Assembly (NCBI GenBank): GCA_046160525.1 | Contig: JBJXGQ010000406.1 | Location: forward strand, 1-51,195 | Source: Burkholderiales bacterium | Lineage (GTDB): Bacteria; Pseudomonadota; Gammaproteobacteria; Burkholderiales; SHXO01 | Direction of reading: 5' to 3' | Length of the DNA: 51,195 nucleotides | Shown: in pieces, positions 16,877-32,722 of the stretch | Layout of the letters: each line of letters opens with the position of its first letter | Position numbering within the stretch: the stretch's first letter is position 1 | Made by a program: the position numbers and the translations under genes | Notes under the pieces: generated by a model | Told to the model about the DNA's origin: nothing | Seen by the model: the letters and a program-made list of their open reading frames with translations, nothing else | Database searches by the model: none

Positions 16877-16897
16877 CAAGGAGCGGCGCTAAATTAT

Positions 16898-16925
16898 GCA
16901 AGGGCCGCCCATGCGCGGCCCTTGC
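16898..16925. terminator. Hairpin between convergent genes, likely bidirectional terminator
   Basis: GCAAGGGCCGC-ccatgc-GCGGCCCTTGC, perfect 11-bp stem; AT-rich run follows on the minus strand. Confidence 0.65.
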
Positions 16926-16940
16926 TCGCGGTGATGGAAT

Positions 16941-17564
16941 TCATCTTTGTTCTTCTGCGTACACGATCACCGATAGCATGTGAATCGGCGTTTGAACCAG
17001 GCGCTCTGGGCCGTGCGGAACGTCGCCACGGAAGGATAGGGAATCTCCGGGTGCGAGCATGTAGGTCTGGCGGCCGTGGCGGTACTCGATCTTTCCTTTC
17101 AGGATGTAGATGAACTCGGTGCCGGGATGCTCGAAGCTCGGGAACACTTCGCTCGCATCGTCCATGGTGATGAGGAAGGGCTCGAAGCTTTTTCGCGGAC
17201 CTTTGTCGTAGGCAAGCAAGTGATAGGTGTGGCCGCGCTTGGTGCCGCGGCGCACGACTTCCATGCCTTGGTTGGCCTTGACCAATTGCGCTCCGCCCGC
17301 AGGGGCATCGAAATCGCGAAACAGCTGCGACAGCGATACGCCGAGCGCGCCGGCGATACGCGTCAGAGTGTCGAGACTGGTGGCCGCTTGCCCGTTCTCG
17401 ATCTTGGACAGCATGCCGCTGCTGATACCGGCCTGCGAGGCGACGTCGGCCAGCGTGAGATCGTTCTTGCGCCGCAACTCCCTGACGGTGTGGCCGATGT
17501 AACGGTCGAGGGAACGGCTTGTGTCCTCGGCGGGAGCTGTGGGGGGCTTGGGAAGTTTTTTCAA
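16941..17564 (-). CDS. XRE-family HTH regulator with C-terminal cupin domain, probable regulator of the NMG cluster
   Basis: IGHTVRELRR..LTLADVA...GISSGMLSKIENG; HPGTEFIYIL.G...LAPGDSLSF....PHGP; TTG start 8 nt after the gmaS stop. Confidence 0.85.
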   Translation of the reverse strand: MKKLPKPPTAPAEDTSRSLDRYIGHTVRELRRKNDLTLADVASQAGISSGMLSKIENGQAATSLDTLTRIAGALGVSLSQLFRDFDAPAGGAQLVKANQGMEVVRRGTKRGHTYHLLAYDKGPRKSFEPFLITMDDASEVFPSFEHPGTEFIYILKGKIEYRHGRQTYMLAPGDSLSFRGDVPHGPERLVQTPIHMLSVIVYAEEQR

Positions 17565-17572
17565 AGCGAAGC

Positions 17573-18907
17573 CTAGAAAAACTCCAAGTACCGGTCCACC
17601 TCCCACTGTGACACATGGCGCGAGTACTCGATCCATTCCATGCGCTTCAGTTTCAAGAACTCTTCCGATAGATCCTTGCCGATGGCCTCGCAAATCACGG
17701 AATCTTTTTCCAGCGCGTTGAGCGCTTCGTCGAGGCTCTGCGGCAGCAAGCCGATCTTGGCCTTGGCGAGATCGGAGGCGCTCCACTCGTAGAGGTTGGT
17801 ATTGTTGGGCTCGCCGGGGTCCATCTGGTTCTCCACACCGTCCATTCCCGCGGCGAGGATGGCGGTGGTGGCGAGATAGGGATTGGAGGAACCGTCGGGC
17901 AGGCGCATTTCCAGGCGCCCATAGGGCACACGCACCATGCACGTACGGTTGTTGTCGCCATAGGTGATGTAGGCGGGCGCCCAGGTTGCGCCGGATAGCG
18001 CGCGGCCCACGACCAAGCGCTTGTAGGAGTTGATGGTGGGTGCGCAGATGGCGGTCAGCGCCGCGGCGTGATGCAGCAAGCCGCCCATGAAGTGATAGCC
18101 CATCTTGGACAGCCCTAGCTTGCGCTTGTCCTTGTCGTCGTGGAACAGATTCTTGGTCTTCGCATCGCCCATGGAGATGTGATAGTGCGAGCCCGTGCCC
18201 GTACGGTTGGAAAAAGGCTTGGGCATGAAGGTGGCGACCAAGCCCATCTGGTGCGCGATTTCCGAGGCGGCCATCTTCAGGAAGATCACCCGGTCGGCGG
18301 TGGCCAGTGCGTCCCCATAGGTGAAGTTCACCTCGAACTGGCCGTTGGCATCTTCGTGGTCGATTTGATAGACATCGATGCCCACGGCGCGCACGGATTC
18401 CACCAGCTTTTCCAAGAATGCGGAACTGCGCGCGAGCCCCTTGTAGTCGTAGCAGGGTTTCTCCAGCGTGTCGGTGTCGTCACACATTCCGATGCCCCCG
18501 CCGTCCTTGCGTTTGAGCAGCATGAACTCCGGTTCGATGCCGGTGTATAGGGTCATGCCCTTCTTGGCGAGTTTTTCCAATTGGGTTTTGAGTACGTAAC
18601 GCGAATCGTAAGGGTAGGGTTTGCCCTTCACATGACCGATGGTGGTCATGCGTGCATAGCCTGGCATCCATGGGATGGCGTGCAGTTGCACGAGATCGCC
18701 CACCGCCATGTAGTCAGGCCCTTGCGGGCCCATGCCGAAGCCCCACAAGGCGAATCCCGCGAATCCCGCGCCGTCGGTGAGCACCATGTCCAGGTGCTCG
18801 GCGGGAACCGCCTTTGCCTTCGCCGACCCATGGATATCCACGAACTGCGCGAGAATGTATTTGATGTCGTTGGCCTTGAGCCACTTCTTGGCTTCTGCTG
18901 GGGTCAT
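17573..18907 (-). CDS. gmaS: Gamma-glutamylmethylamide synthetase (type III GS-like, GlnT family)
   Basis: [54 protein letters not shown]; embedded in the mgd/mgs cluster. Confidence 0.88.
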
Positions 18908-18935: not shown

Positions 18936-19072
18936 CCCTCATCCCAACCCTTTTGGTTTCGGCATTACCTAAAGGTAAGCCTACACCGCAACAAGCCGCT
19001 TCGCGTCGTGTTGTCCCGACGGAGAAGGGCTTTTCCTCCCTCGCCCTTCGGGAGAGGGACCGAGGGTGAGGG
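18936..19072. repeat. REP-like palindromic element (CCCTCAcCC..GGGAGAGGG type) carrying an internal ~60-nt extra segment
   Basis: Ends CCCTCATCCCAACCCTT and GAGGGTGAGGG are inverted; internal TCCCGACGGAGAAGGG and CCCTCGCCCTTCGGGAGAGGG. Confidence 0.6.
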
Positions 19073-19090
19073 ACCGTTCACCTCACTTTC

Positions 19091-19753
19091 TCACGCGGAA
19101 ATCTCCGGCATGAGCGATCGCAATCCTACCGCGCTGCCTCCCAATTCCCCGGCGATCTCGATCAAGGTCTGCCACAGATACGCGGCGAAGGTGTGATCGC
19201 ACCATATCCGGTAACGCGGCAGGCCTTGGTACGGCTCCCAGATGACCAGCACGGTCACACCTACCATGGATGTCATGACCACGGTGCGGTCCTCGGGCTT
19301 CCACGCGCGGAAATTTACGTTGCATGTTTGCACGAGCAAATCGTTCGCGTTTGGTCCGTAGAGTACCAAGGCAGCATCTTGCCTTAGCACGGGAGACACG
19401 CCGGAGGCCGGGGCGAGTACTCCTCTTAATCGTTCGACGACTGTCCCGCCTGCACGGTCTTCGAGAAAGAATTCGCTGCGCGCGAGCCGGGCCACCAAGG
19501 TGCCCTCACGGGTGCGCGTCCAACTGTTGATTGCGGGCGGAACTTCCATGCCTTGGTTAACCAGCCACGTTTGCGCCTTGGAGCCCTTGACGCCCATGCG
19601 AAGCAGGCAACTTGCATCGCTCAATTGAACAGGACCGGCATTCTCGCCCCCTTCAATTTCCATGGGGACCAGCATTCCATGCACGACGGTCCAACGCGGG
19701 TTGAGCGGTACGAGGAAATCGTGCAGCGGGCTGAGGCGGTTCCCGGTGTTCAT
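19091..19753 (-). CDS. mgdD: N-methylglutamate dehydrogenase subunit D (sarcosine oxidase gamma-like)
   Basis: SPLH, LSDASCLLRMGVKG, ARLARSEFFLED, RQDAALVL.G...LL.QTCNVNF, YRIWCD.TFA.YLW; 4-nt overlap with mgdC. Confidence 0.75.
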   Translation of the reverse strand: MNTGNRLSPLHDFLVPLNPRWTVVHGMLVPMEIEGGENAGPVQLSDASCLLRMGVKGSKAQTWLVNQGMEVPPAINSWTRTREGTLVARLARSEFFLEDRAGGTVVERLRGVLAPASGVSPVLRQDAALVLYGPNANDLLVQTCNVNFRAWKPEDRTVVMTSMVGVTVLVIWEPYQGLPRYRIWCDHTFAAYLWQTLIEIAGELGGSAVGLRSLMPEISA

Positions 19754-22626
19754 ATTTTTTGCCGCTCGGCTGCCGGATCGTAGAACGGAAGTTTCACCAC
19801 AATCGCTTCAATCATCTGACCGCCTTCGCCGCGAACCGAAAACTTCGTGCCTTCTTGCGCGAGTTCAGGGGCGATGAAGCCCAGGCCGATGTGATACCCG
19901 AGCGCTTCGCTGAAAGCGATGCTGGTAATGCGTCCGGCGATGCTGCCTTCGTGGATCACCAAGTGGCACTCCTTCGGTGCCTCGCCGGAAAAATCTTTGT
20001 GGAGAGCGAAGCCGGCTGCCACTTGCTTGGGCTGCCGCTGGCCTATGATTTTCAAGCTGCGTTGCCCAACGAAGAAGGGCTTGTCCATCTTGACCGCCCA
20101 GCCCATGGCGGCCTCGAAGGGAGTGGTCAGTCCGTCGGTGTCCTGGCCGATGATGACGTGGCCCTTCTCCAAGCGCAACAAACGCTGCGCTTCCACGCCG
20201 AAGGGTTGAATGCCGTGAGGTTTGCCCGCGTCCATGAGGGCGTCCCACAAATGGCCCATGCACTGGGCGGGTGCGTGAATTTCGTAACCCAATTCGCCCA
20301 CGAACCCCACGCGCATCAAACGGCAGGGCACTCCCGCGATTTGCGCATCCCGCACGCCCAGATAGGGAAAACCTTGTGGCGACAAGTCGTGCGCCGTGAG
20401 TTTGGCGAGTACTTCGCGCGACTCAGGTCCGGCGAGATTCACCGCACCCATGGCGCCCGTCACGTTCACGATTCCGGTATCCAAACCCCATTGCGTGTTC
20501 CATCGCACCAACTCCCGGTAGACGGTGGCCGAACCCGTGGTCGTGGTGGTGAAGTAGAAATGCTGTTCGGAGAGACGGCCTACGACGCCATCGTCAACGA
20601 TGACGCCTGCTTCGTCGAGCATCACGCAGTAGCGCGTCATCCCCACCTTGAGGTTGGCGAAGCGCCCGGTGTAGACGCGCTCCAGAAACTCTCCGGCATC
20701 CGGGCCGAAGAGATCCATCTTGCCCAGCGTGCCCACGTCGATGATGCCCGCGCCGTTGCGCACGGCACGCGCTTCCGCGCGCACGCATTCGAGTTTGCTC
20801 TGTCCTTGGGCCGCGTAGTACTCGGGCCGCCACCAATTGCCTGCCTGCATCCACACCGCGCCCAATTTTTCGTGGCGCGAGTGCAGGGGCGTTTGCCGCA
20901 TGGGATGAAAACCGCGTCCCGCCAGATGGGACATGGGTACCGGATGATAAAACGGGCGTGCGGTCGTGGTGCCAATCTTGTCGATGGCTTCACTGCGAAT
21001 ACGGGCGAGGATGCGCACGGCACTCATGTTGGAGTGCTTACCCTGGCTCGGGCCCATGCCCACGGTGGAGTAGCGCTTGAGCAGCTCGATGTTGTCGAAG
21101 CCCTCTTGGGCGGCGTTGTGGAAATCCTTCAGTTGCAGATCTTCATCGAAATCGACGAAATTCTTGGCCGAGGTATGGGGCACGATGGGGTAGGGGTGTG
21201 TGGGCGTACGCGTATGCGCCGGCACTTGTACCGCCGGGGCGTTGGCCAGCCCAAGATACCTGGCCGCCTCGCCGCCCGCGCGCTTGCCGTCCAGTAGGCG
21301 CGCGCTCAGTTCATGGACGCCATTGACCCGTCCCGCCGCGAACACACCGGGAGCAAGACTTTCCGGAACGAACTGTTCCACGCTTGTGGCGTAACGCATT
21401 TTGGCGCCGGCCTGATAGAGCAAATTGGCGGCGGGCGTGAATCCAACGCTCATCAATACGCCATCGCACCGGATGGTTTCCCTGCGGGCCGCACCCGCCT
21501 CGCCGTTATCAAACGCGGCCACGCGCACACCGGATACATGTTGCCCCGAGCGAATCGCCTTGGCGATGCACGCACCCTTCAAAACGCGGAACGGCGTGGC
21601 TTGCGGCAGGGAGGTTTCGCCTTCCGCGCGTAGGTCGATCACGGCGGCAACGGCGATCCCGTGCCGGTGTAAATCCAATGCGGCTTCGTAGCCTTCGCGA
21701 TTGGCTGTGAGTACGACGGCCTTTTTTACCGGTTTCACGGCGTAACGGTAGATGAGGCGCTGGGCGGCGGAGGCGAACATCACGCCGGGCAGATCGTTAT
21801 TGCGGAACACAGCCGGCTGTTCGAACACGCCTGTAGCCACGATGGTGGCGCGCGCGCGCAACTTGGTCATCTTGTCTGCGCTGGTCAACGCTATCCAATG
21901 GTCGCCGTAGTAACCGGACGCAGTGGTGCCGGTGCGGATTTCCATATTCGGAAATTGCCGGGCTTCACGCAGGAGTGCTTGTAATTGCTCGTAACTGGCG
22001 TCGCCTCCCGCGCGCGCATAGCCCAAGCTTCCTCCGGCTTGCGCGTTCTCGTCCACAACGAGCACCGATGCCCCGGCGCGGGCGGCCTCGATTCCCGCCG
22101 CGAGCCCAGAGGGACCGGCTCCGATCACGGCGATATCCACGAAGTCGTAGCGCTTCGCCGTGACGATGCGCGGCAGGCCGAATTTAGGTTTGCCCAGGCC
22201 CGCAATGGAACGGAAGAACTGCTCCCACTTTTGCGCGAAACGCCCGTGAAAGGCCTTGTAGTAAAAACCCACGGGCAAGAACGCTGAAAGCTTGTCTAAT
22301 ATCCTGGCACGGTCGGCGCGCACGCCGCCAAAAGTATTGACGGCGTAAAGCTCCATGTCTTCGCGCAGCGGCGTCACGTCGGCGCGCAGATTGATATGGA
22401 ATTTGTCCTCCATGAGCGTATTCACGTCGTGATCCGCCATGGACAAGATGCCGCGCGGCCGGTGGTACTTGAAGCTGCGCCCGAGAAGATGAGTGCCAGA
22501 GGCCCACAGGGCCGAGCTGATGACATCGCCCTCGAAGCCTATGCGGGGACGGCCCTCGAAGCGGAAGACGAGGGGCTTGGAGCGGTCGATCCACTCGCCC
22601 TCCACGGGAGGCAAGCGTGCGCTCAT
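19750..22626 (-). CDS. mgdC: N-methylglutamate dehydrogenase subunit C (sarcosine oxidase alpha-like, THF-binding)
   Basis: LGRSFKYHRPRG, GFYYK.F, GAGPSGL, FRNNDLPGVM, KRYSTVGMGPSQGK, GcvT-like C-terminus (RVGFVGELGYEIH, LRLEKGH); ATGA overlap with mgdB. Confidence 0.85.
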   Translation of the reverse strand: MSARLPPVEGEWIDRSKPLVFRFEGRPRIGFEGDVISSALWASGTHLLGRSFKYHRPRGILSMADHDVNTLMEDKFHINLRADVTPLREDMELYAVNTFGGVRADRARILDKLSAFLPVGFYYKAFHGRFAQKWEQFFRSIAGLGKPKFGLPRIVTAKRYDFVDIAVIGAGPSGLAAGIEAARAGASVLVVDENAQAGGSLGYARAGGDASYEQLQALLREARQFPNMEIRTGTTASGYYGDHWIALTSADKMTKLRARATIVATGVFEQPAVFRNNDLPGVMFASAAQRLIYRYAVKPVKKAVVLTANREGYEAALDLHRHGIAVAAVIDLRAEGETSLPQATPFRVLKGACIAKAIRSGQHVSGVRVAAFDNGEAGAARRETIRCDGVLMSVGFTPAANLLYQAGAKMRYATSVEQFVPESLAPGVFAAGRVNGVHELSARLLDGKRAGGEAARYLGLANAPAVQVPAHTRTPTHPYPIVPHTSAKNFVDFDEDLQLKDFHNAAQEGFDNIELLKRYSTVGMGPSQGKHSNMSAVRILARIRSEAIDKIGTTTARPFYHPVPMSHLAGRGFHPMRQTPLHSRHEKLGAVWMQAGNWWRPEYYAAQGQSKLECVRAEARAVRNGAGIIDVGTLGKMDLFGPDAGEFLERVYTGRFANLKVGMTRYCVMLDEAGVIVDDGVVGRLSEQHFYFTTTTTGSATVYRELVRWNTQWGLDTGIVNVTGAMGAVNLAGPESREVLAKLTAHDLSPQGFPYLGVRDAQIAGVPCRLMRVGFVGELGYEIHAPAQCMGHLWDALMDAGKPHGIQPFGVEAQRLLRLEKGHVIIGQDTDGLTTPFEAAMGWAVKMDKPFFVGQRSLKIIGQRQPKQVAAGFALHKDFSGEAPKECHLVIHEGSIAGRITSIAFSEALGYHIGLGFIAPELAQEGTKFSVRGEGGQMIEAIVVKLPFYDPAAERQKI

Positions 22627-22883
22627 TTGGGCGCCTCGCCCCACAGATAAGTCGCCAGCACCCGGTCAACGGTGGTATCGCGCTCCGCGATGAACCACAC
22701 GCCGCTGGGCACGTGATACCACCACTCCTTCTTTATGCCAGGGGCGCCGTTGCGGTTGAACACGTAGTCCGACCACTGCTCGTTGGAGCAAGTGGAAGGG
22801 TCCGGCATAGGACGCACTTCGCCGCCAAAAGCGAATTCCGAAACGGGGCGCGGGCCGTTGATGGGGCAGGTAAGAAGTTTCAC
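22623..22883 (-). CDS. mgdB: N-methylglutamate dehydrogenase subunit B (sarcosine oxidase delta-like)
   Basis: CPINGPR..SEF.FGGE.R.MPDP, W.DYVF.R...PG...EWW.H..SG.WF.AERDT. Confidence 0.85.
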   Translation of the reverse strand: MKLLTCPINGPRPVSEFAFGGEVRPMPDPSTCSNEQWSDYVFNRNGAPGIKKEWWYHVPSGVWFIAERDTTVDRVLATYLWGEAPK

Positions 22884-22889
22884 GACGAC

Positions 22890-25436
22890 TTACGCCGCTT
22901 CTGGAATCTTATTGGTCCCCGCGAGAGGTACACCCGTGGCTCGCGCCGTGGTAAGCGTAATGGAACGCACGTCCTCGGGTTCTAGATTCTGCACGTTGGT
23001 CTTGCCCGTGCAGCGCGCCATGATGGAGCATTCCTCGCGCAGCGCACGCAAAAAGGATGCGGCCTGGTCGCGCCGCTCTTCGTCTGCCACGTCGGAGTAG
23101 AACACCATGCCGTTATTCTCCACGATGCCGCCTACGGCGAAAGCCATGGACACCGATACCACCGCTGCCTTGCAACCCAGGCCGACAATCTTCGCGACGT
23201 CCGTGCCCGAGCGTATGCCGCCGAAATACAGAAGATCGATATCTTCTTCGCGGTTCATGGATCGCATGATCGCGATGGCATCGCGCATCACGGAAAGATC
23301 GGGATGGCCGCCAAGTTCGCCCCATGGCCGCGCCATGTTTCCGGAGCCCGAGAGGATCATGATGTCCATCTTTTGTTCGAGTGCAAAAGGTATGGCCCGT
23401 GGCAGGTCACGTGCCTCGGTAACCAAGCCCGTGAGTTGGGTGTCGCGCGCCTTGCGCACATCGAACGGTGCGAACCCGGAGGGCGAATAATAGATGACGC
23501 CCAAGGCCTTCTCGTCCGGCTTGTCCTTGCCTGCTTGCGCAAGCTGGAACCACGGTGTGTCCGGATGGATACGATGGCGCCCAAGATAGGCGACCCCCAT
23601 TTCCCGCACGCCATGCTCGATGGATTCGCGCACCTGCGGGACCGCCTCATCGAACCCCGCGACAAGGTATGGCAACTCAAGTTTGACGCGCTGGCCCAAT
23701 TCCACGGACACAGCGCACGCATCTCGATAGGGGTCAATCACCAGCCTCGATAAATTCGCTGGTAAGAACACTAGATCGTCCAGCGTAGCGGGACGATCTT
23801 CGGGGAAGGGATTGCCGCGCGTGCGCAAGCGCTTTTGCAACATGCTGGACTGCGTGGCCACATCCAAGGGGTTCGTGCGCGCCATGACGAAGATGTCCTC
23901 TCGCGTGCTCACGTCGTAGTTGGCGGTGCCCGTTTCCGCATCGCAGCGGTAGCAGCGTGCGGCTTCGTCCTTGGCTTCCTTCTCCGTATAAGTGGATTCG
24001 ATTTCCGGAAACGCCACCGGATTCTTGCCCAAACCATGGAAGGGCTGGTGCTGGCGGCCGATCACTTCCCAATTGGGATCCTGCGCCGGGGAAACGCGGC
24101 GGGTACGGAAGGGTGTGCGATAGGGCACGGGATTCGCGCGGCCGTCCAGTTGCGCCTTGATGTAGTAGGCGGCACGATGGCCGTGCTGCATGGCCATGAC
24201 GATGGTGGAACCCCCAAAGGCGCCGTCGCCCGCCGCGAACACCTTGGGATCGGCCGTGCGCATGGTCTTCCAATCGGTGCGCACGCGGTCCGCGTTCATC
24301 AGCCCGCGCTTCGCCAATTCCTCGCACTCGCCTTTCTGCCCCACGGCGAGAATCACCATGCCGCAGGCGAGATCGTGTTCGCTACCCGAGACATTCTCCG
24401 CTTGGCGGCGGCCATCCTTTCCAGGTTCCCCGAACTGTGTGAGCACACAGCGCAGGGCAAAGCCTTTATCCGTGTCAAGTGCCGCCACGGGTTGTGTGTT
24501 GTAGAGGAACTCCACACCCTCCTTGATGGCGCCATCGAGTTCATCCTTGCGCGCCGGAATTTCCTTCGGGCCACGGCGGTAGATCACTTTGACTTGTTTG
24601 CATCCAGGCAGGCGCAGCGCGGCGCGGCAGGCATCCATGGCCACGTCGCCGCCGCCCACGACGATGACGGTCTCGGGCATGGCGGGCCGGTCGCCGGCAT
24701 TGATACGGCGCAGGAAGCCCACGCCGTCCACAATGCGCGGATCGTCCTTGCCTTCGATATCCATGGTCTTACCCCACCACGAGCCGATGGTGAGTAGCAC
24801 GGCATCGTGGCGCGATTTCAAGTCCTCGAGACTCACGTCGCGGCCCAGCGCGGTGTTCAGATGAACCTTGATGCCCGGGCAGTGCTTGAGCATGCGGTTC
24901 ATGTCTTCTTCGATGATGCCAGGAGGCAGGCGGAATGCGGGAATGCCCCACACCATCATGCCGCCCAGACGGTCCGTCATTTCGTAGACGTGCACTTCGA
25001 ACCCGGCTTCGGCCAGATCTTGCGCGGCGGTGAGTCCAGCGGGGCCCGAACCTACTATCGCGACCGTTTCCTTGCGCGTGACGGACACGGCGGGCAAATG
25101 GAAGCTCGTGCCCAGCTTGTCCATGATGAAGCGCTTCAAATTGCGGATGGCGATGGGGCCGTCACTATCCGCACGGCGGCAAGCGGGTTCGCAGGGCGCG
25201 TCGCACACGCGGCCGCAGATGGAGCTGAATGGGTTGGTGGCGGTGATGGCCTCGAAGGCTTCCTCCACCTTGCCTTCCCAGATGTATCCGATGTATGAAG
25301 GCGCATCGGTGCCGATGGGGCAAGCTACCTGGCAAGGCGCGGGGACGAAGTTGATGTCCTGTATATCTTCGCGCAGTCCTTCCGGCGTGGGGCCGGGCTC
25401 GATGCGCTGGATGTCGTAAACGTTGACTGCGCTCAT
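22890..25436 (-). CDS. GltD-like Fe-S/FAD/NAD(P)H oxidoreductase fused to a degenerate glutamate-synthase FMN-barrel domain
   Basis: APCQVACP, NPFSSICGRVCDAPCEPACRR, GSGPAG, GGGDVAMD, YRRG, FAAGD, EAARCYRCD; C-terminal LDDLVFLPA.LSR and GGIRSGTDVAK..GLG without the 3Fe-4S cysteines. Confidence 0.8.
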   Translation of the reverse strand: MSAVNVYDIQRIEPGPTPEGLREDIQDINFVPAPCQVACPIGTDAPSYIGYIWEGKVEEAFEAITATNPFSSICGRVCDAPCEPACRRADSDGPIAIRNLKRFIMDKLGTSFHLPAVSVTRKETVAIVGSGPAGLTAAQDLAEAGFEVHVYEMTDRLGGMMVWGIPAFRLPPGIIEEDMNRMLKHCPGIKVHLNTALGRDVSLEDLKSRHDAVLLTIGSWWGKTMDIEGKDDPRIVDGVGFLRRINAGDRPAMPETVIVVGGGDVAMDACRAALRLPGCKQVKVIYRRGPKEIPARKDELDGAIKEGVEFLYNTQPVAALDTDKGFALRCVLTQFGEPGKDGRRQAENVSGSEHDLACGMVILAVGQKGECEELAKRGLMNADRVRTDWKTMRTADPKVFAAGDGAFGGSTIVMAMQHGHRAAYYIKAQLDGRANPVPYRTPFRTRRVSPAQDPNWEVIGRQHQPFHGLGKNPVAFPEIESTYTEKEAKDEAARCYRCDAETGTANYDVSTREDIFVMARTNPLDVATQSSMLQKRLRTRGNPFPEDRPATLDDLVFLPANLSRLVIDPYRDACAVSVELGQRVKLELPYLVAGFDEAVPQVRESIEHGVREMGVAYLGRHRIHPDTPWFQLAQAGKDKPDEKALGVIYYSPSGFAPFDVRKARDTQLTGLVTEARDLPRAIPFALEQKMDIMILSGSGNMARPWGELGGHPDLSVMRDAIAIMRSMNREEDIDLLYFGGIRSGTDVAKIVGLGCKAAVVSVSMAFAVGGIVENNGMVFYSDVADEERRDQAASFLRALREECSIMARCTGKTNVQNLEPEDVRSITLTTARATGVPLAGTNKIPEAA

Positions 25437-27403
25437 GATGCTTTACGGAATATGGGGCGTTGCATTTGCTCTTGGGGTACGTAGGGCAAGCGCGTGATGG
25501 CGGCCGCTTCGGGGGTGAGCGCAACCAAGTCGTCGCGGCTCAGCTTATGCACGTCGTCGTGACCGAGGGCGCGCGTGACCGCGGCCAGCTGCCAGCGCAC
25601 GGATTCCAAATAACGATGGATGTTCTGCGCTTCCACCGGAACGTTGTAGCGCTTCTCGTGTTCGGGATCTTGCGTGGCGATGCCCACGACGCAGGAGCCC
25701 ACGTGGCATTGCAAGCACGCAATACAACCGCCCGCGATGATCGCACCCGTGCCCAAGGCCACGGCGTGAGCGCCCAGCGCGATGGCCTTGGCGGCATCCA
25801 CGCCATCCTTGACGCCGCCCATCAGCACGATGGGCATCTTGCGAATAGCATCCGCGCCTTCACCCAGTTCGGCGAGCGCGTCCATGGCCTCTTGAATGGC
25901 GGAAAGCGTGGGGATGCCCACGTACTCCAGCACTTCATGGGAAGCAGCGCCCGTGGAGCCTTGCAGGCCATCCAGCTCGACGAAATCGAAACCGTCCTTG
26001 TAGGCGATCTTGATGTCATCGCGCACACGGCCTGCGCCGAGTTTCACGGACACTGGAATGCGGTAGCTGGTGGCTTCGCGAAATTCCTCCACCTTGATCA
26101 CCAAATCGTCCGCGCCCAATACATCCGGGTGGCGCGAGGGTGAGCGCAAGTCGATGCCGGCGGGAATACCGCGAATGCGCGCGATTTCCTTCGTCACTTT
26201 CTTCGCCATCAACTGGCCACCCAAGCCGGGTTTGGCGCCTTGGGAGATGTAGATCTCCAAGCCGTTGGCGCGGCGCATGTCGTGGATATTCCAACCTAGG
26301 CGCCCCGACAGGCATTGATAAATGATCTGGTCGGCGGCGGCGCGTTGCTCATCGGACATGCCACCCTCGCCCGTGTTCTCGGAGACGCCGGAGAGCTTGG
26401 AGGCGATGGCGAGCGCCACCTTGGTGGATTTGGATAGCGCACCGTAACTCATGGGCGCGATGGTGACGGGCATGCTGAGCTTGATGGGGTTGGCACCCAT
26501 GCGCCCGCCGATCTCCGTCTTGAGCGCGACCTTGTTCACCACGTCGCGGTCGTGCTGTATGCCCGAAATATTCTTGCGAAAACCGATGTCGCTCAAGTGG
26601 GGAAGCGCGCGCGAAGCGCCATAGCCGCGTATGCGGTAGCGGCCGATGCGCGAGCGGATGAAAATGTCCTCCTGGACTTTCTCGTTCCAGTAGCCGGACA
26701 CCGCGCCCGACGCCATGAAGAAAGGCACTTGGCGCGTGCGCGGTTCCGTGCGCGGATAGCGCAGCTTCTTGCCGGCGTTGACGATCTTCTGGAGGACACC
26801 CTTGAAGGGAATCCCGTAACGGTCGAGGAACTGCGCGATGTCGCCGGCCTCTTCACGAGGTAGGTCAATGAGCTGCGCATCGGTACCTAACGATTGCAGC
26901 TTGCCCGCGACGTAAATGGAACCGCCGGTCATGTCCTGGCCCACTTGCTCGCCCGAGTTGCCGAGAATCACGATGCGGCCGCCGTACATCATGTAACCCG
27001 CCATGAAGTTGGCGTTGCCGCAGCAGAGCAGGGTGCCTTCCTTCATCACTTGGCCCGCACGCGATCCGATGTTGCCCTTGACGATGACTTCGGCGCCGCG
27101 TATGGCCACGCCCGCGATGGCGCTGGCGTTACCGTTGACGACGATGGAGCCCTTCAGCATGTTGTCGGCCAAACCCCAACCCACGTTGGCTTCCACTTCA
27201 AAGCGCGGTCCGTCCGTGAGGCCGGCGCAGAAATAACCCGCGGAGCCGCGTATCTTGACCTTGATGGGATACGTTAGCCCCACGCCGATGTGATGGCGTG
27301 CATCGGGGTTGGCGATTTCCACGTCTTCGCCTGCTTCACCGAGCAGGCGTAGTTTCTCGTTCGCTTCGCGAACGCTAAGTTGAGCTAGATCGAGCGTTGC
27401 CAT
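25433..27403 (-). CDS. N-methylglutamate synthase GXGXG (MgsB-like) and FMN/3Fe-4S (MgsC-like) fusion
   Basis: N-terminal GSAGYFCAG and GXGXG beta-helix repeats; C-terminal IAPMSYGALS, NTGEGG, SQGAKPGLGG.L, SPSRHPD, CIACLQCHVGSCVVGIATQD. Confidence 0.8.
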   Translation of the reverse strand: MATLDLAQLSVREANEKLRLLGEAGEDVEIANPDARHHIGVGLTYPIKVKIRGSAGYFCAGLTDGPRFEVEANVGWGLADNMLKGSIVVNGNASAIAGVAIRGAEVIVKGNIGSRAGQVMKEGTLLCCGNANFMAGYMMYGGRIVILGNSGEQVGQDMTGGSIYVAGKLQSLGTDAQLIDLPREEAGDIAQFLDRYGIPFKGVLQKIVNAGKKLRYPRTEPRTRQVPFFMASGAVSGYWNEKVQEDIFIRSRIGRYRIRGYGASRALPHLSDIGFRKNISGIQHDRDVVNKVALKTEIGGRMGANPIKLSMPVTIAPMSYGALSKSTKVALAIASKLSGVSENTGEGGMSDEQRAAADQIIYQCLSGRLGWNIHDMRRANGLEIYISQGAKPGLGGQLMAKKVTKEIARIRGIPAGIDLRSPSRHPDVLGADDLVIKVEEFREATSYRIPVSVKLGAGRVRDDIKIAYKDGFDFVELDGLQGSTGAASHEVLEYVGIPTLSAIQEAMDALAELGEGADAIRKMPIVLMGGVKDGVDAAKAIALGAHAVALGTGAIIAGGCIACLQCHVGSCVVGIATQDPEHEKRYNVPVEAQNIHRYLESVRWQLAAVTRALGHDDVHKLSRDDLVALTPEAAAITRLPYVPQEQMQRPIFRKAS

Positions 27404-28296
27404 GTGCGGAAGGTGCCGGGTGGGGGTTCGGTGGTGTTGAGCGCTTGTCCGGGGAAAAGACGGTTGAGCGAAACTTCCTCGGAGGCGATGGCGATGATGT
27501 CGTCGGTTTCGTACATCACCATGGGTTTGGCGGCCAGGCGGTCCTTGGCGAAACCGATTTCGTCCTTGGTGGAAACCAGGAAGGAGAAGGTGCCGTCGAG
27601 ATCCTCGATGGATTGCGCGAGCGCTTCTTGCAGCGTGCGGCCTTGCGAGAGCTTGTCGGCGAGATAGACCGCGATTAACTCGCTATCGTTGCTGGTGTTG
27701 AAGGCGAAACCTCTCTTGGCCAAGCGGCGGCGCATCTTGTAGTAGTTGGTGATTTGCCCGTTGTGCACGATGGCTACGTCGGCGAATCCCGTTGCCCAGA
27801 AGGGATGGGAGGCATCGGGCGTCACGTCCGATTCCGTGGCCAGCCGCACGTGGCCAATGCCGTGGGAGCCGTGGAAATCGCGCACGTTGTAGGCATCGTC
27901 CACGTCGTGGGCACTGCCCGTGTCCTTGATGATGTCCAGGCTCTCGCCGATGGAGAACACCTTGGCGGCGTGCTCCATGTCGTAGGAAAATTTCTGCACG
28001 TCGCCGTCGAAGTGCACGATGACGCTGTAGCTGGTGCCCGCGCGCTCGTCCGACAGAATCGTGGCGTTGTGATCGCGCAACTGCGCTTTGATCTCGGCGA
28101 CCTTGCCTTCCGCTTCGCGGCCATCGCCCACGAAGAAGCGCAGACGCAGCTCTCCAGGATTGGCGTGGTGATACAGCGCGAACCCCGTGGAGTCCGGCCC
28201 GCGGTGCTGGCAGCCATCCAACATGCTGATGAGCGACTTGCCCACCTGGGCATCCGCGCCGGGGCGCTTGAACAAAATTCCTGCTATTCCGCACAT
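27385..28296 (-). CDS. mgsA: Class II (Ntn) glutamine amidotransferase, N-methylglutamate synthase subunit A
   Basis: MCGIAG with N-terminal Cys, HRGPDSTG, GHVRLATES, HPF, HNGQITN, DSE; GAGGTG RBS. Confidence 0.8.
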   Translation of the reverse strand: MCGIAGILFKRPGADAQVGKSLISMLDGCQHRGPDSTGFALYHHANPGELRLRFFVGDGREAEGKVAEIKAQLRDHNATILSDERAGTSYSVIVHFDGDVQKFSYDMEHAAKVFSIGESLDIIKDTGSAHDVDDAYNVRDFHGSHGIGHVRLATESDVTPDASHPFWATGFADVAIVHNGQITNYYKMRRRLAKRGFAFNTSNDSELIAVYLADKLSQGRTLQEALAQSIEDLDGTFSFLVSTKDEIGFAKDRLAAKPMVMYETDDIIAIASEEVSLNRLFPGQALNTTEPPPGTFRTWQRSI

Positions 28297-28326
28297 AGTG
28301 TCACCTCAAGAAATAAACGCATCGCC

Positions 28327-28430
28327 GCCTCAGTGTCCCATTGAAACGATACCCTTTTAGCTCCGGCATAACCCAGGCTTCGCATGGATTAGCCTTCACT
28401 GAAAGGGTGCAGCCTCAGTGTCCTACTGAA
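28327..28430. repeat. 19-bp direct repeat duplicating the mgdA 3' end and flanking a 66-nt hairpin-forming insert
   Basis: GCCTCAGTGTCCCATTGAA (28327-28345) vs GCCTCAGTGTCCTACTGAA (28412-28430), 17/19 identical; inner ACCCTTTTAG...CTGAAAGGGT inverted repeat. Confidence 0.7.
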
Positions 28431-29656
28431 GCAGCACCTTTCTCCCCCGTTAACTCGTAGTTCGCGAACCGCGACAGGCGAAAGCCCTTGATCAAATCAT
28501 GATCGCGATCGTTGAACAGGGTGTAACTCATGGTCTTGCCGCTCACGGGTGTCGCCTTGAATCCCCAGGTGCCCCATCCCGCATCCAGATAGAAACCTTC
28601 CACCGGTGTCTTGCCCATGATGGGGGCGAAATCCGGCGTCATGTCCGCCAGGCCCGCCCACTGGCGAACGATTTTCGCGGTGGAAAGAAATGGGAACATA
28701 TCCAGGATGTGAGCGGAGAGTCCTTCCGCGAAGTCGAGCGTGGAGCGGGTGTTCTGCACTTCGTAGGGATCCAGCGATGCACCCATCACCAGTTCTCCGC
28801 GTGCGGATTGGCTGATGTAAATGTGTAAGCTGCCCGAAACGAATATCTGGTTGAGCCAGGGCTTCATGGGTTCGCTCACCATGGCCTGAAGCGGGTGGAC
28901 GAAAATGGGCGAACGCAAGCCCACCATGTTCAAGATGCGCGGCGTGAACCCCGCCACGGCGCACAGCACCTTGTTGGTGGCCACGTAACCGCGCGTTGTG
29001 TGTACGCCTACCACCTTGCCGCCCTTCACATCGATGCCCGTCACTTCGGTCTGCTGGTGAATCTCCACGCCGCGCTGGTCCGCGCCGCGCCCATAGCCCC
29101 AGGCCACCGCGTCGTGGCGCGCGATGGCGCCCGGCGCGTGATATAGGGCGCCGAGTATGGGCGCGTGCCCGGCGCAAGTAAGATCGATCTGCGGGCAGGC
29201 CTTCTTGATGAACTCCGGGCCTACCACTTCGCTGTCCACGCCGTAGTGCTTGTTGACCTCCGCCCGCCAGCGCGAAGTGCGCAGGGCGGAATCCGTGTGG
29301 GCCAGGGTGAAGTGGCCGCGCGTGGAGTAAAACAGGTTCAGGTCGAAGTCCTGGGCGAGGTCCTGGTAGAGCCGCACACTCTCGTCGTAGAAGGCCACGC
29401 CTTCGGGGGTGAGGTAGTTGGAGCGGATGATGGTGGTGTTGCGCCCGGTGTTGCCGCCACCCAGATAACCCTTCTCCAATACGGCTACATTGCTGAGTTT
29501 ATAGTCCCTGGCAAGATAGTAAGCGCTCGCCAAGCCGTGCCCGCCGGCGCCGATGATCACGGCGTCGTAGGTAGGCTTGAGGCGCTCCGGGACGCGAAAC
29601 ATGCGTGGTTCCGGGTGCTCGCGGCTCAAGGCAAAACGCAATAGCCCGAGGGGCAT
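28415..29656 (-). CDS. mgdA: N-methylglutamate dehydrogenase subunit A (sarcosine oxidase beta-like FAD subunit)
   Basis: IIGAGGHGLA.AYYL, GGNTGRNTTIIRSNY, ARHDAVAWGY, GWGTWGFKATP, EKGAASVGH; start at ATG 29656 (alternative GTG 29701). Confidence 0.85.
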   Translation of the reverse strand: MPLGLLRFALSREHPEPRMFRVPERLKPTYDAVIIGAGGHGLASAYYLARDYKLSNVAVLEKGYLGGGNTGRNTTIIRSNYLTPEGVAFYDESVRLYQDLAQDFDLNLFYSTRGHFTLAHTDSALRTSRWRAEVNKHYGVDSEVVGPEFIKKACPQIDLTCAGHAPILGALYHAPGAIARHDAVAWGYGRGADQRGVEIHQQTEVTGIDVKGGKVVGVHTTRGYVATNKVLCAVAGFTPRILNMVGLRSPIFVHPLQAMVSEPMKPWLNQIFVSGSLHIYISQSARGELVMGASLDPYEVQNTRSTLDFAEGLSAHILDMFPFLSTAKIVRQWAGLADMTPDFAPIMGKTPVEGFYLDAGWGTWGFKATPVSGKTMSYTLFNDRDHDLIKGFRLSRFANYELTGEKGAASVGH

Positions 29657-29741
29657 GGGGAAAGGTAATGGGCGAAAAGAGGGGTCTATTTTCCTTGCCA
29701 CCTGCCATGGGTGTCAAGAATGGCATTCAATAATATTGCGT

Positions 29742-29763: not shown

Positions 29764-30051
29764 CTATTTGGCCGGCATCCTGTGCAAATCCCAGCGTAAA
29801 CGGGCAATGCGGTAGGCGTCCACCAAGGAGATGACGTAGATGAACACCCCGCCCGCGTGGCGGCCAAGGAAGGACTGCGCGGGGGTCGTTAGATGGTGGC
29901 TCACGATGGCGAGCGAGATCATGAAGAACACGAAGACGATGGCGCGCGTTGCATTGTTGTTGAGCACTTGGCCCATGCCCGGCAGCAGCGCCGCGACGGC
30001 AAGTACCGACCACGGATTGAGGGGAGGTTTGGGCGCGGGCGTGTCAGGCAT
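29764..30051 (-). CDS. Small membrane protein, methylamine-cluster associated hypothetical
   Basis: Three hydrophobic segments; LLPGMGQV.N and DAYR.AR; overlaps upstream gene by 8 nt. Confidence 0.7.
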   Translation of the reverse strand: MPDTPAPKPPLNPWSVLAVAALLPGMGQVLNNNATRAIVFVFFMISLAIVSHHLTTPAQSFLGRHAGGVFIYVISLVDAYRIARLRWDLHRMPAK

Positions 30052-30700
30052 GGGTGGAGATTGTATTGGCTACGGCGTTCGCTCGCGCTAGCAGAAGTTC
30101 CAGCAGCGCGGGCGGCACGGCACCGATTTCGAAATGCCCGGCGCGAAGCACCAGATACTCGGCACGCCGTGCTTGCGAGAGTTGGTATACCAAGCGCACG
30201 CCCTGGGGCGTGACCAGAATTTCCTTCGCGCGCGCATCGGCGAAGAATTCGGCCGCATGCGGTGCCAGCGATACCAACGATGCTTGCGGCGCACCGCACT
30301 TGATGGTCAATTCCGTGGACCACCCAGGGGGAGAATCAAGGCGGTAGGGTAATTGCCCGCCAGGCGAGTAGAACTCCGTATTCTGGCTGCGAGCGAGGAT
30401 GTCCAGGTGCGGAAATTCGCGTAGATCCGCTCGCAACGAAACCGAGATCCACAGGGAGGGCAGCTTACGGAAGGTGGCATCATCACGAAACAATCTCACC
30501 TCCGCGGCCTTGCTCGCGAACTTGCCGCGCAAGACCGGGAACCCGTCCGCGGCAATGGTTTTCTCGCACTGCGCAAGCGGAGTGTTCTCGCAGCCTAGAA
30601 CATTGGTGCGCCAGGCCGCGTAGCGCCGCTGGTCCCGGCGGTGCATCCACGCGAGGAGGCCCCCCAAGAAGAGCGCCAGGACCAGAAGTCCGAATTTCAT
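30044..30700 (-). CDS. Membrane-anchored hypothetical protein
   Basis: N-terminal TM MKFGLLVLALFLGGLLAW, then a soluble domain (RKLPSLW, EFYSP, KEILVTPQGVRLV, YLVLR); coupled to the downstream gene. Confidence 0.7.
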   Translation of the reverse strand: MKFGLLVLALFLGGLLAWMHRRDQRRYAAWRTNVLGCENTPLAQCEKTIAADGFPVLRGKFASKAAEVRLFRDDATFRKLPSLWISVSLRADLREFPHLDILARSQNTEFYSPGGQLPYRLDSPPGWSTELTIKCGAPQASLVSLAPHAAEFFADARAKEILVTPQGVRLVYQLSQARRAEYLVLRAGHFEIGAVPPALLELLLARANAVANTISTHA

Positions 30701-31345
30701 CGTTTCACCAGGGGCTCGCATGTCCTCTAATGTCGTAATATTACGTGGCGCAAAGAGCACTCCGGCGCGGCCGGGGACCCAAGGAGTGCCTAGGACCGAG
30801 CTAGATCATGACAAAAAGCTTCGAGTTGATCCAAACGACAAACCGCCGCATAGCCACTTAAGACCGCCGGTGCGGCGCGGACCGCCGCGCAAGTTCGGTG
30901 CGGGAAGTGAACGCCGCGGGCACTGCCGTGATATTGCGAGAACTCCTGGACGAGGCTCATGCACGATTACGCGCGCTGGAAAAAACAGTGGAAATCCTTC
31001 GCCGCTGATCTGAGCATCTTGGATCTTGGCCCGTGACTGGGCTTTAGTCATCTCCCCTCCCAAGACGTCTCATCCAAGCAGGTGAGATGCAATTCACCTA
31101 TACGGATTACCGAGACTGCCAAGCCTGGGGGATGGCAGCCCGGAATTGACTGAGTACGATGGCCGCTGCCAGTAGGGGGTCAGATCCGTGCCCTGGGGCT
31201 ATTCCCATCGCGAAAACGGTACCGCTTGAGTAAACCAGTTGTACCGGCAACCCGGGGATCAGGCCAACACTCCTGCTTGGCGCCACAAAGAAACCGATTG
31301 TCCCGCGACTTGAATCGTACGACGAGCCAACAGGAGGACCTAGAG

Positions 31346-32722
31346 ATGGAACCTAATAATTCGCAACCCGCACAATCCGCGCAACCCGCCAATTCGGACC
31401 GGCGCCAATTCATGACGCAAGCGGCTGGTGTGGTTGCCGCGACCGCCGCCGCCGCGGCCACGGTGGGAAGCAACTCCGCCACCGCCGCGCAAGGCAGCGA
31501 CAACGTAGTATTCAGGGCCGAAATGGGCAGGCGGCCCGAAGACCAACGCACCAAGACCCATAACCGCTGGCACCCCGATATTCCCTTCGTGCAGTGGTTC
31601 AAACCGGGAGATGAGTTCCGGGTCGAGTGTTACGACTGGACGGGTGGCCAGATCAAGCCCGACAACAGCGCCAACGACGTGCGTGACGTTACCTTGAGCC
31701 TGGTTCACTACTTGAGTGGTCCGTTCGGCGTGCAGGGCGCGGAGCCCGGCGACCTCCTCGTGGTGGATCTTCTGGAACTGGGATACCTGCCAGACTCCAA
31801 ATGGGGCTTCACTGGAATTTTCGCCAGGGAAAATGGCGGCGGTTTCCTGGTCGATCACTTTCCGGATGCGCGCAAGGCGATCTGGGATTTTCACGGCATG
31901 ATGTGTTCATCGCGCCATATCCCCGGCGTGGAATGGCCAGGCTTGGTCCATCCAGGGTTGATCGGTTGTTTGCCCGACCGAGCGCTGCTGGAGAAGGCAA
32001 ACAAGCGCGAAGCGGCGTTACTGGCTACCAATCCGAATCGCGTGCCGCCGCTGCTTGCCCCGCCTTACGCCGACACTGCCCTCATGGGACAAATGACCGG
32101 GGCGGCCGCGAAGAGGGCGGCGGCCGAAGCTTGGCGCACGGTGCCCCCGCGCGAACATGGCGGTAACTGCGACATCAAGAATCTGTCGCGCGGATCCAAA
32201 ATCTACTTCCCCGTTTACGTCAAGGGCGGCGGCCTTTCCATGGGCGATATTCACTGGTCGCAGGGCGACGGCGAAATCACCTTCTGCGGGGCCATCGAGA
32301 TGGCGGGGTGGATCGATCTGCGAGTCGATATCATCAAGGGCGGCATGGCCAAGTACGGCATCGTCAACCCGATCTTCAAGCCCAGCCGCACCGAACCGCA
32401 TTTCTCGGAGTACCTGGTGTTCGAGGGAATTTCGGTGGATGAAAAAACCGGCGAGCAATACTACCTGGACGCACATGTGGCCTACCGGCGCGCGTGTCTG
32501 AACGCCATCGAGTATCTTAAGAAGTTTGGTTACTCCGGCGAACAGGCTTACATGATTCTGGGAACGGCCCCCGTCGAGGGGCGTATCAGCGGCATCGTGG
32601 ACATCCCCAATGCCTGCTGCACGGTTGCGGTTCCGACCGAAATCTTCGACTTCGACATCCGGCCCACGGCCTCCGGGCCCATGCACAAGGTCCCGCGGGT
32701 GAGCGTGGCGATGCCCAGTTAG
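31346..32722 (+). CDS. fmdA: Formamidase (acetamidase/formamidase family) with N-terminal twin-arginine-like leader
   Basis: HNRWHPDIP, ECYDWTGGQI, VHYLSGP, PPREHGGNCDIKNLSRGS, SQGDGEITFCGAIEM, ISGIVDIPNAC; CAGGAGGA RBS before ATG 31346; DRRQFM leader. Confidence 0.93.
   Translation: MEPNNSQPAQSAQPANSDRRQFMTQAAGVVAATAAAAATVGSNSATAAQGSDNVVFRAEMGRRPEDQRTKTHNRWHPDIPFVQWFKPGDEFRVECYDWTGGQIKPDNSANDVRDVTLSLVHYLSGPFGVQGAEPGDLLVVDLLELGYLPDSKWGFTGIFARENGGGFLVDHFPDARKAIWDFHGMMCSSRHIPGVEWPGLVHPGLIGCLPDRALLEKANKREAALLATNPNRVPPLLAPPYADTALMGQMTGAAAKRAAAEAWRTVPPREHGGNCDIKNLSRGSKIYFPVYVKGGGLSMGDIHWSQGDGEITFCGAIEMAGWIDLRVDIIKGGMAKYGIVNPIFKPSRTEPHFSEYLVFEGISVDEKTGEQYYLDAHVAYRRACLNAIEYLKKFGYSGEQAYMILGTAPVEGRISGIVDIPNACCTVAVPTEIFDFDIRPTASGPMHKVPRVSVAMPS

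Follow-up and report, generated by a model that had tools for sequence, protein, structure and literature searches.

A GltD-like partner protein in a candidate NAD(P)H-linked form of N-methylglutamate synthase

Could an N-methylglutamate (NMG) synthase carry its own input for NAD(P)H electrons? This question is raised by a stretch of 51,195 nucleotides from a Burkholderiales bacterium (GenBank assembly GCA_046160525.1, contig JBJXGQ010000406.1; the whole stretch is hereafter called the window), in which a methylamine operon includes three adjacent genes, i.e., mgsA', a fused mgsBC' and a gene for an 848-residue protein with a GltD-like half. We refer to these three genes as the triad, the prime marking triad-type subunits. 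According to our analysis, it is moderately likely that the triad is an NAD(P)H-driven gamma-glutamylmethylamide:2-oxoglutarate methylaminotransferase, its NAD(P)H-type input protein pointing to the long-missing reductant of NMG synthase.

In water and soil, methylated amines are a widespread source of carbon and nitrogen. With reference to Gruffaz et al. 2014, Mindt et al. 2018 (PMC6237917) draws gamma-glutamylmethylamide synthetase (GMAS) and NMG synthase (NMGS) as a cascade with 2-oxoglutarate that resembles the couple formed by glutamine synthetase (GS) and glutamate synthase (GOGAT), and states that the reductant (redox cofactor) of NMGS is unknown, the candidates being NADH, NADPH and ferredoxin. 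Good et al. 2015 (PMC5023235) mentions that the topology of the pathway still awaits enzymology and includes a ferredoxin reductase in its list of genes that methylamine induces in Methyloversatilis. Since the cascade has already been drawn for the canonical NMGS, the idea of a GS/GOGAT-like methylamine cycle, put forward in the initial annotation of the window, is not new; what the window adds to it is a reductase-bearing variant. No paper linking NMG synthase to a GltD-type subunit was found in full text (subscription journals and closed supplements lay outside this search), and a dedicated reductase-bearing variant of the enzyme appears to be undescribed. With its own NAD(P)H-type reductase, such a variant makes the reductant question testable with three genes.

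Position of the triad in the methylamine operon

The methylamine genes of the window form a single close-packed row on the minus strand (16894-29701; open reading frame (ORF) calls together with Pfam and NCBIfam scans), in the order mgdA-[mgsA'-mgsBC'-848-aa]-mgdB-mgdC-mgdD-gmaS-orf240. The triad comprises the following features:

27385..28296, minus strand: mgsA', class-II (N-terminal nucleophile, Ntn) amidotransferase of 303 residues (GATase_6/GATase_7; N-terminus MCGI)
25433..27403, minus strand: mgsBC', fusion of a GXGXG domain (MgsB; residues 30-169) and a flavin mononucleotide (FMN) barrel (MgsC; Glu_synthase at 305-615), 656 residues
25691..25726, minus strand: candidate iron-sulfur (Fe-S) cysteine motif C560-x2-C563-x2-C566-x4-C571 of MgsBC', from the alignment with the GltB of the same genome
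22890..25436, minus strand: gene for the 848-residue protein, a GltD/NfnB-like module for NAD(P)H, flavin adenine dinucleotide (FAD) and Fe-S followed by a degenerate MgsC-type barrel (Pfam, NCBIfam, PDB matches and hhalign)
23937..25436, minus strand: GltD/NfnB-like half, residues 1 to ~500 (Fer4_20, Pyr_redox_2), with a linker ending in C495-x2-C498
24573..24581, minus strand: Y286-R287-R288, which follows the GGGDVAMD strand and is a candidate for binding the NADPH 2'-phosphate (invariant in 24/24 homologues; aligned with the YRR of 9bov_A)
22893..23804, minus strand: degenerate MgsC-type (beta/alpha)8 barrel, residues ~545-848 (hhalign, PDB profile matches, tblastn matches to canonical MgsC)

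The initial annotation had called mgsA, a fused mgsB-mgsC and a translationally coupled 848-residue ORF at this place. Both its gene calls and its coordinates are right, since ORF positions, domain matches and junctions agree: mgsA' and mgsBC' overlap by 19 bases, and the ATG of the 848-residue gene overlaps the TGA stop of mgsBC' (ATGA). It did not mention that mgdA, mgdB, mgdC, mgdD and gmaS lie on the flanks of the triad, mgdB starting 6 bases past the stop of the 848-residue gene.

The strongest evidence for the role of these genes comes from the genus itself, of which 18 genomes were searched with MgsBC' (match threshold E <= 1e-40). In seven of them, the only MgsC is of the canonical type (39-46% identity); another ten yielded nothing at this threshold. 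In the remaining genome, G290 (97% complete), the triad type alone is present, at 96% identity. Four of the seven canonical clusters were fetched (G289, G276, G273, G288) and read mgdA-mgdB-mgdC-mgdD-gmaS-mgsA-mgsB-mgsC-orf240, while G290 shows the order of the window, mgdA-[triad]-mgdB-mgdC-mgdD-gmaS-orf240. The triad took the place of the canonical mgsABC in an otherwise syntenic operon. No second Mgs-like set was found in the genome to which the window belongs (92% complete), and the triad would fill the NMG synthase role in its pathway, there being no other candidate. Clustering of the triad with gmaS and mgdABCD, as in the window, is also seen at loci L001, L039 and L112. On the FMN-domain tree, the window triad sits among mostly alphaproteobacterial sequences, albeit with weak inner branches, and there are hints that the triad was transferred into the genus.

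The remaining genes of the operon are:

28415..29701, minus strand: mgdA, opening gene of the operon, for the beta subunit (SoxB family) of N-methylglutamate dehydrogenase (DAO, 213 bits; TIGR01373 soxB, 463 bits, cut-off of 529 not reached)
22623..22883, minus strand: mgdB, SoxD-family delta subunit of 86 residues, GTG start (PF04267 SoxD, 95 bits)
19750..22644, minus strand: mgdC, SoxA-family alpha subunit with a folate-binding GCV_T domain (TIGR01372, 827 bits, cut-off of 1164 not reached; GCV_T, 260 bits)
19091..19753, minus strand: mgdD, probable SoxG-family gamma subunit (TIGR01375, 29.5 bits, far under the cut-off of 143.95; GCV_T, 29 bits)
17573..18907, minus strand: gmaS, gamma-glutamylmethylamide synthetase of the type III GS family (TIGR03105, 648 bits, above the cut-off of 469.6)
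16894..17616, minus strand: orf240, conserved final gene of the cluster (no family match)

The GmaS, MgdA and MgdC of the window share 55-80% identity with their counterparts of the Paraburkholderia and Acidithiobacillus type. For MgdA, comparison with canonical beta-type and same-genus clusters gives 77-88% identity; for GmaS, identity amounts to 63-64% with the beta-type enzymes and to 43% with that of Aminobacter. The probable assignment of mgdD is based mainly on where the gene lies and on the 41-72% identity of its product with MgdD from related clusters. In G289, gmaS (L110:14122-15455) is broken into three abutting or overlapping pieces (14122-14502, 14471-15088, 15087-15455), which suggests frameshifts or assembly errors. 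The last gene, orf240, closes canonical as well as triad operons in the genus (37-70% identity) and is 34% identical to an annotated XRE-family regulator gene beside the Sinorhizobium mgs cluster; it is likely a regulator of the pathway. A scan for promoters and terminators returned nothing above chance, the sole promoter-like sites being just upstream of mgdA.

Just upstream of the operon lie a formamidase gene (31226-32722, plus strand; NF045496, 723 bits, above cut-off) and a LuxR-family regulator gene (33200-34345, minus strand). Between them and the operon is an ORF of 238 residues (30044-30760), which adjoins mgdA in G290 as well (78% identity) and for which, as for orf240, Pfam returned nothing at E up to 1. 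The whole region may be a small island for the use of nitrogen from one-carbon amides and amines.

Domains and motifs of the three proteins

MgsA' has the same Pfam signature (GATase_6/GATase_7) as the canonical MgsA of Aminobacter; it is 35-38% identical to canonical MgsA, to which it scores ~180 bits, vs. ~100 bits to the best NCBIfam amidotransferase models. MgsBC' is 37-42% identical to canonical MgsB/MgsC, and its barrel keeps the GltB-type motifs QGAKPGLGG (QGAKPGxGG) and GGVKDGVD (GGxxxGxD). Three of its cysteines (C560, C566 and C571) align with the C-x5-C-x4-C cluster site of GltB, this site reading CIACLQCHVGSC in MgsBC' vs. CIMMRKCHLNTC in the GltB of the same genome, with one extra cysteine in MgsBC'. 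All four cysteines are present in 78 of the 81 tblastn matches from loci L001-L080, the remaining three being paralogues. No Glu_syn_central domain was found in the triad proteins with Pfam.

Canonical MgsC comes in two kinds with respect to this site. None of the four cysteines occurs in the five alpha-type sequences (Aminobacter, Methylobacterium, Sinorhizobium and two more; L085, L088, L089, L090, L103), which carry 'TTAGAYDDWHEGKDPAG' there, whereas the four beta-/gamma-type sequences (L086, L087, L094, L108) all have the complete set plus an insertion of ~27 residues. The same holds for the cysteines of the four same-genus canonical MgsC, and the cysteine-bearing set includes L110-L114. 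The two kinds of canonical MgsC may differ in redox mechanism. As a marker restricted to the GltD-partnered form, the Fe-S cysteines had to be ruled out because beta-type canonical MgsC keeps them.

A maximum-likelihood tree was computed from 37 FMN domains, with a single GltB, long outgroup branches and a bootstrap that is not fully settled. The 18 triad domains form one clade (100/99), to which the 17 unfused MgsC-like sequences are sister (99/96), the triad thus falling outside the unfused MgsC clade; jointly (98/96), both are separate from the GltB of the window's genome and one other paralogue. This topology suggests that the triad belongs to the NMG synthase lineage and not to GltB. No solved structure of an NMG synthase turned up, the nearest ones being GOGAT large chains at 108-124 bits.

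In the initial annotation, canonical clusters were held to be devoid of a GltD partner, which is what we observed. Five clusters were taken from plasmid records, of which three are annotated (Aminobacter niigataensis p2, Acidithiobacillus caldus, Sinorhizobium medicae) and two are not (Methylobacterium bullatum, Paraburkholderia caribensis); for instance, the A. niigataensis p2 annotation reads mgsA, GXGXG, FMN-binding protein, glnT and sarcosine-oxidase-like beta, delta, alpha and gamma. In these five and the four same-genus clusters, nothing matches the GltD-like half of the 848-residue protein, the only matches being those of its barrel to MgsC.

The 848-residue protein itself had been described as GltD-like, which holds for its N-terminal half, but the C-terminal half is a second, degenerate FMN barrel according to hhalign. 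In the N-terminal half, Pfam places Fer4_20 at residues 33-107 and Pyr_redox_2 at residues 124-419, and the top NCBIfam models, PRK12771 and PRK12814 ("NADPH-dependent glutamate synthase small subunit"-like), match residues 32-502 only, under their curated cut-offs (397 vs. 516 bits and 374 vs. 916 bits, respectively). The protein is also below every cut-off of TIGR01316, TIGR01317 and TIGR01318, with 272 vs. 472-483 bits for the GltD models. Its FAD motif (GSGPAG), its NADPH motif (GGGDVAMD) and Y286-R287-R288, which we take to bind the 2'-phosphate of NADPH, are invariant in 24 full-length homologues, as are the six cysteines of its Fe-S part (C-x3-CP plus C-x3-C-x3-C-x3-C). The module, said to be complete in the initial annotation, is so for the FAD and NADPH/YRR motifs but not for the Fe-S part, since the GltD of the same genome has seven cysteines (C-x2-C-x4-C-x3-CP plus C-x3-C-x3-C). 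The best solved relatives of this half are 9bov_A (296 bits), 8oh5_C, NfnA 9n5u_A and 4ylf_B, while the Azospirillum GltD 6s6s_G matches it at 206 bits.

As for the second barrel, residues ~500-848 align with the FMN-domain profile of MgsC over 321 columns (hhalign probability 99.9, E 9e-33), the profile of the C-terminal half matches FMN barrels of the PDB (flavocytochrome b2, lactate oxidase) at E ~1e-6, and tblastn also finds matches to canonical MgsC. The barrel keeps a GG[IV]RSGTDxAK motif (invariant in 51 sequences) and lacks both the QGAKPGxGG...RHPD loops and the Fe-S loop. Four cysteines of the protein are invariant in the 24 homologues, C495, C498, C574 (window position ~23715) and C809 (~23010), and the latter two could make up a four-cysteine site with C495-x2-C498. 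The column of C574 (V292 of MgsBC') holds a cysteine in 9/9 unfused MgsC (L085-L090, L094, L103, L108) and that of C809 (L613) in 8/9, while neither column has one in any of 12 triad MgsBC sequences; this hints at an origin of the second barrel from an MgsC of the canonical type. The barrel might also stand in for the central domain of GltB; a comparison of its profile with the GltB of the same genome gave no match (hhalign probability 0.3) and is uninformative, the template being a single sequence. Within the complex, the degenerate barrel may serve as a scaffold or provide another cofactor site.

Spread of the triad and its genomic companions

The family of the 848-residue protein comprises 120 or more full-length proteins with an identity of at least 61%, named only "FAD-dependent oxidoreductase" or "glutamate synthase beta subunit-like", and relatives are encoded in 413 species genomes. 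According to database records, these are mostly uncultured Alphaproteobacteria from freshwater, the sea and sediments, further carriers being found in Burkholderiales, Gammaproteobacteria, Planctomycetota and Latescibacterota. From these genomes, 80 related loci were fetched for neighbourhood analysis. A triad-type mgsBC lies immediately upstream of the 848-residue gene at 78 of the 79 loci with more than 300 bases of upstream sequence (the exception being L071), and a triad-type mgsA lies upstream at all 68 loci with more than 3 kb. These neighbourhoods support a fixed partnership of the GltD-like protein with MgsA' and MgsBC'.

A profile search of the barrel against 1.84 billion representatives returned 115 proteins at E <= 1e-30. 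P0244 (1486 residues) is a MgsB-MgsC-GltD-like-barrel fusion, 63% and 45% identical to the two proteins of the window; P0247 (1031 residues) is a MgsB-MgsC-barrel fusion from which the GltD part is absent; and stand-alone barrels of ~325 residues occur on long contigs (P0147/P0159/P0190). Such fused and rearranged architectures speak for a single complex in which all the modules act together.

The initial annotation had proposed a survey of co-occurrence with gmaS and mgd. A gmaS gene starts at most 1.6 kb downstream of the 848-residue gene at 20 of the 70 loci with enough sequence, and these adjacent genes are of the TIGR03105 type, with 58-66% identity to Aminobacter GmaS. Among 49 triad genomes without a flanking gmaS, 46 have TIGR03105 above cut-off elsewhere (the three misses being two small metagenome-assembled genomes of 2.4 and 2.7 Mb and one best match cut at a contig end), vs. 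a baseline of 33/201 sampled Alphaproteobacteria, 5 of which are triad genomes themselves. The enrichment amounts to an odds ratio of ~92 (Fisher p ~1e-26, an overstated value because relatives are not independent). The mgdA-D genes are recognisable at ~8/80 triad loci, and adjacent dehydrogenase genes, where present, are of the Mgd (SoxBDAG-like) type.

Other genes of the same genomes bear on the role of the triad. The genome of the window encodes a canonical GltB elsewhere (1730 bits), next to which lies a GltD-like match. Of 76 other triad genomes, 74 have a canonical GltB as well, which exceeds the cut-off in 70 and is truncated by contig ends in the remaining ones; the triad would therefore not be the GOGAT of the cell. 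When 77 triad genomes were searched with Aminobacter MgsC, 24 had the triad-type MgsC only or, in one case, no match. Of these 24, 23 have GmaS, and a MgdA/SoxB-family gene was found in all 23 that were searched for it, 14 times at 58% identity or more to the window MgdA; below ~48% identity, MgdA and true SoxB are not separable by this search. The cultured Aestuariivirga litoralis KCTC 52945 has both a triad (L034) and a canonical cluster (L098).

Two further arrangements were observed around the triad. On an Aestuariivirga chromosome (L025; 3426-7003 and 12561-13796), it is preceded by a gene for an old yellow enzyme (OYE)/FadH-type Fe-S flavoprotein of 679 residues and by an MttB-family gene (trimethylamine methyltransferase-like, 270 bits, under cut-off), and followed by a homocysteine S-methyltransferase-like gene; these neighbours fit a methylated-amine context without gmaS nearby. 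At six loci (L026, L027, L031, L032, L056, L068), a second, divergent gene set lies 2-3 kb upstream of the triad on the opposite strand. A GS-like gene (30-32% identity to GmaS) and an mgsA-like gene belong to this set at each of the six loci. An mgsB-like gene follows at four of them and an mgsC-like gene (52-53% identity to the Acidithiobacillus type) at three, the sequence of the others stopping short of these positions. The set may represent another gamma-glutamyl-amide pathway.

Proposed reaction, alternatives and known systems

Judging from its parts, the complex of the three gene products would be built like NADPH-glutamate synthase and stem from the NMG synthase lineage. Briefly, MgsA' would hydrolyse the gamma-glutamylmethylamide made by GmaS to glutamate and methylamine, which would stay enzyme-bound; at the FMN barrel of MgsBC', methylamine and 2-oxoglutarate would form an N-methyl-imine, which FMNH2 would reduce to N-methylglutamate. 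The electrons of NAD(P)H would enter through the GltD-like half and flow from FAD to its Fe-S cluster(s), then to the Fe-S site of MgsBC' and finally to FMN, the degenerate second barrel presumably being part of the complex. Together with MgdABCD, methylamine, 2-oxoglutarate, tetrahydrofolate and ATP would yield glutamate and methylene-tetrahydrofolate. As no free ammonia would be released, the whole would amount to a GS/GOGAT-like methylamine cycle. If true, this would mean an ammonia-free entry of methylamine nitrogen into glutamate, sparing the ATP step of glutamine synthetase, and could offer biotechnology an NADPH-driven route from 2-oxoglutarate to N-methylglutamate. The initial annotation had cast the GltD-like protein as a dedicated electron donor; the fixed partnership (78/79), the fusions, the Fe-S cysteines of MgsBC', the replacement of canonical mgsABC within the operon and the link with gmaS speak in its favour, while the substrates (amide donor and 2-oxoglutarate), the products, the direction of electron flow and the nucleotide preference are inferred.

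Several points weigh against this reading. The classical NMG synthase, studied by Pollock and Hersh, reportedly acts on glutamate and methylamine with an enzyme-bound FMN that cycles, a reaction said to be redox-neutral and therefore without need for outside electrons. Within the GltD-like module, the first CxxC pair of the genome's own GltD is absent, which makes the number of Fe-S clusters uncertain, and the Fe-S cysteines of MgsBC' are not specific to the triad, as beta-type canonical MgsC has the four of them with no GltD partner in its cluster. Moreover, 50 of the 70 loci have no adjacent gmaS, and the neighbours of the triad are heterogeneous at seven loci without a nearby gmaS. At least one unfused MgsC-like gene (51-87% identity) also exists in 53 of the 77 triad genomes, so that the triad probably acts as an isozyme and does not replace the canonical enzyme everywhere; part of the MgsC-like genes at 51-57% lie beside a GS-like gene (30-32% to GmaS) and may therefore belong to a different pathway. 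Likewise, among 20 regions around a triad-distant gmaS, canonical mgsABC lies beside it in 10, 9 of which also have mgd, the remaining ones holding gmaS and mgd without mgs (8) or gmaS alone (2). In most genomes, the triad is thus an addition and could serve another function there. Finally, the incompleteness of metagenome-assembled genomes weakens every statement of absence made here. Where both forms coexist, one may speculate about a division of labour, with the canonical, ammonia-releasing form serving carbon and energy supply and the reductive triad form serving the use of methylamine as a nitrogen source.

What else could the triad be? With all the catalytic parts of a GOGAT at hand, it might be a glutamine-dependent NAD(P)H glutamate synthase isozyme, split and permuted, which would re-assimilate the ammonia released by canonical methylamine catabolism; the unfused MgsC-like gene of the 53 genomes could then be the real NMG synthase, and the 50 loci without an adjacent gmaS would cause no surprise. 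We nevertheless regard this as improbable, given that canonical GltB is already encoded in this genome and in the 74 others, that the operon of the window and G290 is otherwise devoid of an NMG synthase where relatives have the canonical mgsABC, that the FMN domain groups with MgsC and not with GltB, that MgsA' is nearer to canonical MgsA than to the NCBIfam amidotransferases, and that no Glu_syn_central domain was found.

A second alternative keeps the reductive chemistry and changes the substrate: the triad would be a gamma-glutamyl-alkylamide:2-oxoglutarate transferase for a broader range of amines or for other ones (e.g., ethylamine), recruited to methylamine only in clusters such as that of the window. 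The heterogeneous neighbourhoods outside NMG clusters agree with it, as do the six loci with a second, divergent GS-like and mgsA-like set by the triad and the Aestuariivirga triad that follows OYE/Fe-S flavoprotein and MttB-family methyltransferase genes. Yet the GS gene that co-occurs with the triad is of the TIGR03105 type and close to Aminobacter GmaS (58-66%), and the dehydrogenase genes adjacent to it, where present, are of the Mgd type, so that we hold this alternative to be unlikely too.

In a third alternative, to which we give little credence, the GltD-like protein would not be a stoichiometric donor and would either export electrons (e.g., in an NAD(P)+-linked oxidation of N-methylglutamate or glutamate at the MgsBC' flavin, or as a sink for Mgd) or only reset or activate the flavin of a synthase that is otherwise redox-neutral. 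The redox-neutral mechanism mentioned above for the classical enzyme, the location of the 848-residue gene between mgsBC' and mgdB in the window and the reversibility of GltD-type modules in related enzymes such as Nfn (among the PDB matches) would all be compatible with such a role, but the gene travels with mgsA' and mgsBC' (78/79) while mgdA-D are recognisable in only ~8/80 loci, the fusions join MgsBC and not Mgd subunits, and the retained amidotransferase subunit argues for the synthase direction. A closed redox-neutral route made of the triad and MgdABCD, in which methylamine and 2-oxoglutarate would yield glutamate and methylene-tetrahydrofolate without release of free ammonia and the two electrons of Mgd would be returned to the synthase via the 848-residue protein, with its barrel and the invariant C495/C498/C574/C809 as an extra redox or docking centre between the two enzymes, would be a new kind of amine-assimilating machine if true, but appears doubtful at best.

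The reductive methylaminotransferase that we favour would stand between two known enzymes. With canonical MgsABC (EC 2.1.1.21), the triad shares the Ntn amidotransferase, the GXGXG domain and the FMN barrel, with the same Pfam signatures, as well as gmaS and mgdABCD as operon partners; it differs in that its subunits are only 35-42% identical to the canonical ones, that MgsB and MgsC are fused and that the additional protein with a GltD-like half and a barrel is always present. With GltBD (6s6s, 2vdc, 1ea0, 7mfm), it shares the amidotransferase, an FMN barrel with C-x5-C-x4-C, the GXGXG domain and a partner for FAD, NADPH and Fe-S, and its proposed chemistry would be the same, methylamine replacing ammonia. 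In contrast to GltBD, however, its parts are distributed over three proteins, the GXGXG domain comes ahead of the FMN barrel, Glu_syn_central is missing, the cluster motif has an extra cysteine, and the partner lacks the first CxxC and has a degenerate second barrel; the GltB family model NF008730 gives the triad 149 bits vs. a cut-off of 1047.

The 848-residue protein has its own relatives. GltD/NfnB-like modules within larger redox enzymes (9bov_A "molybdopterin oxidoreductase", 8oh5_C, NfnA 9n5u, NfnB-type 4ylf_B) are the best matches of its N-terminal half (296-252 bits), and the match extends through the linker to the CxxC of residue 498. In dihydropyrimidine dehydrogenase, a GltD-like module is joined to an FMN barrel in one chain, the match to this enzyme (1h7x) covering residues 72-508. 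What sets the 848-residue protein apart from all of these is that its barrel is of the GltB/MgsC type, without the substrate loops, and that its partner genes encode the subunits of an amidotransferase-type synthase.

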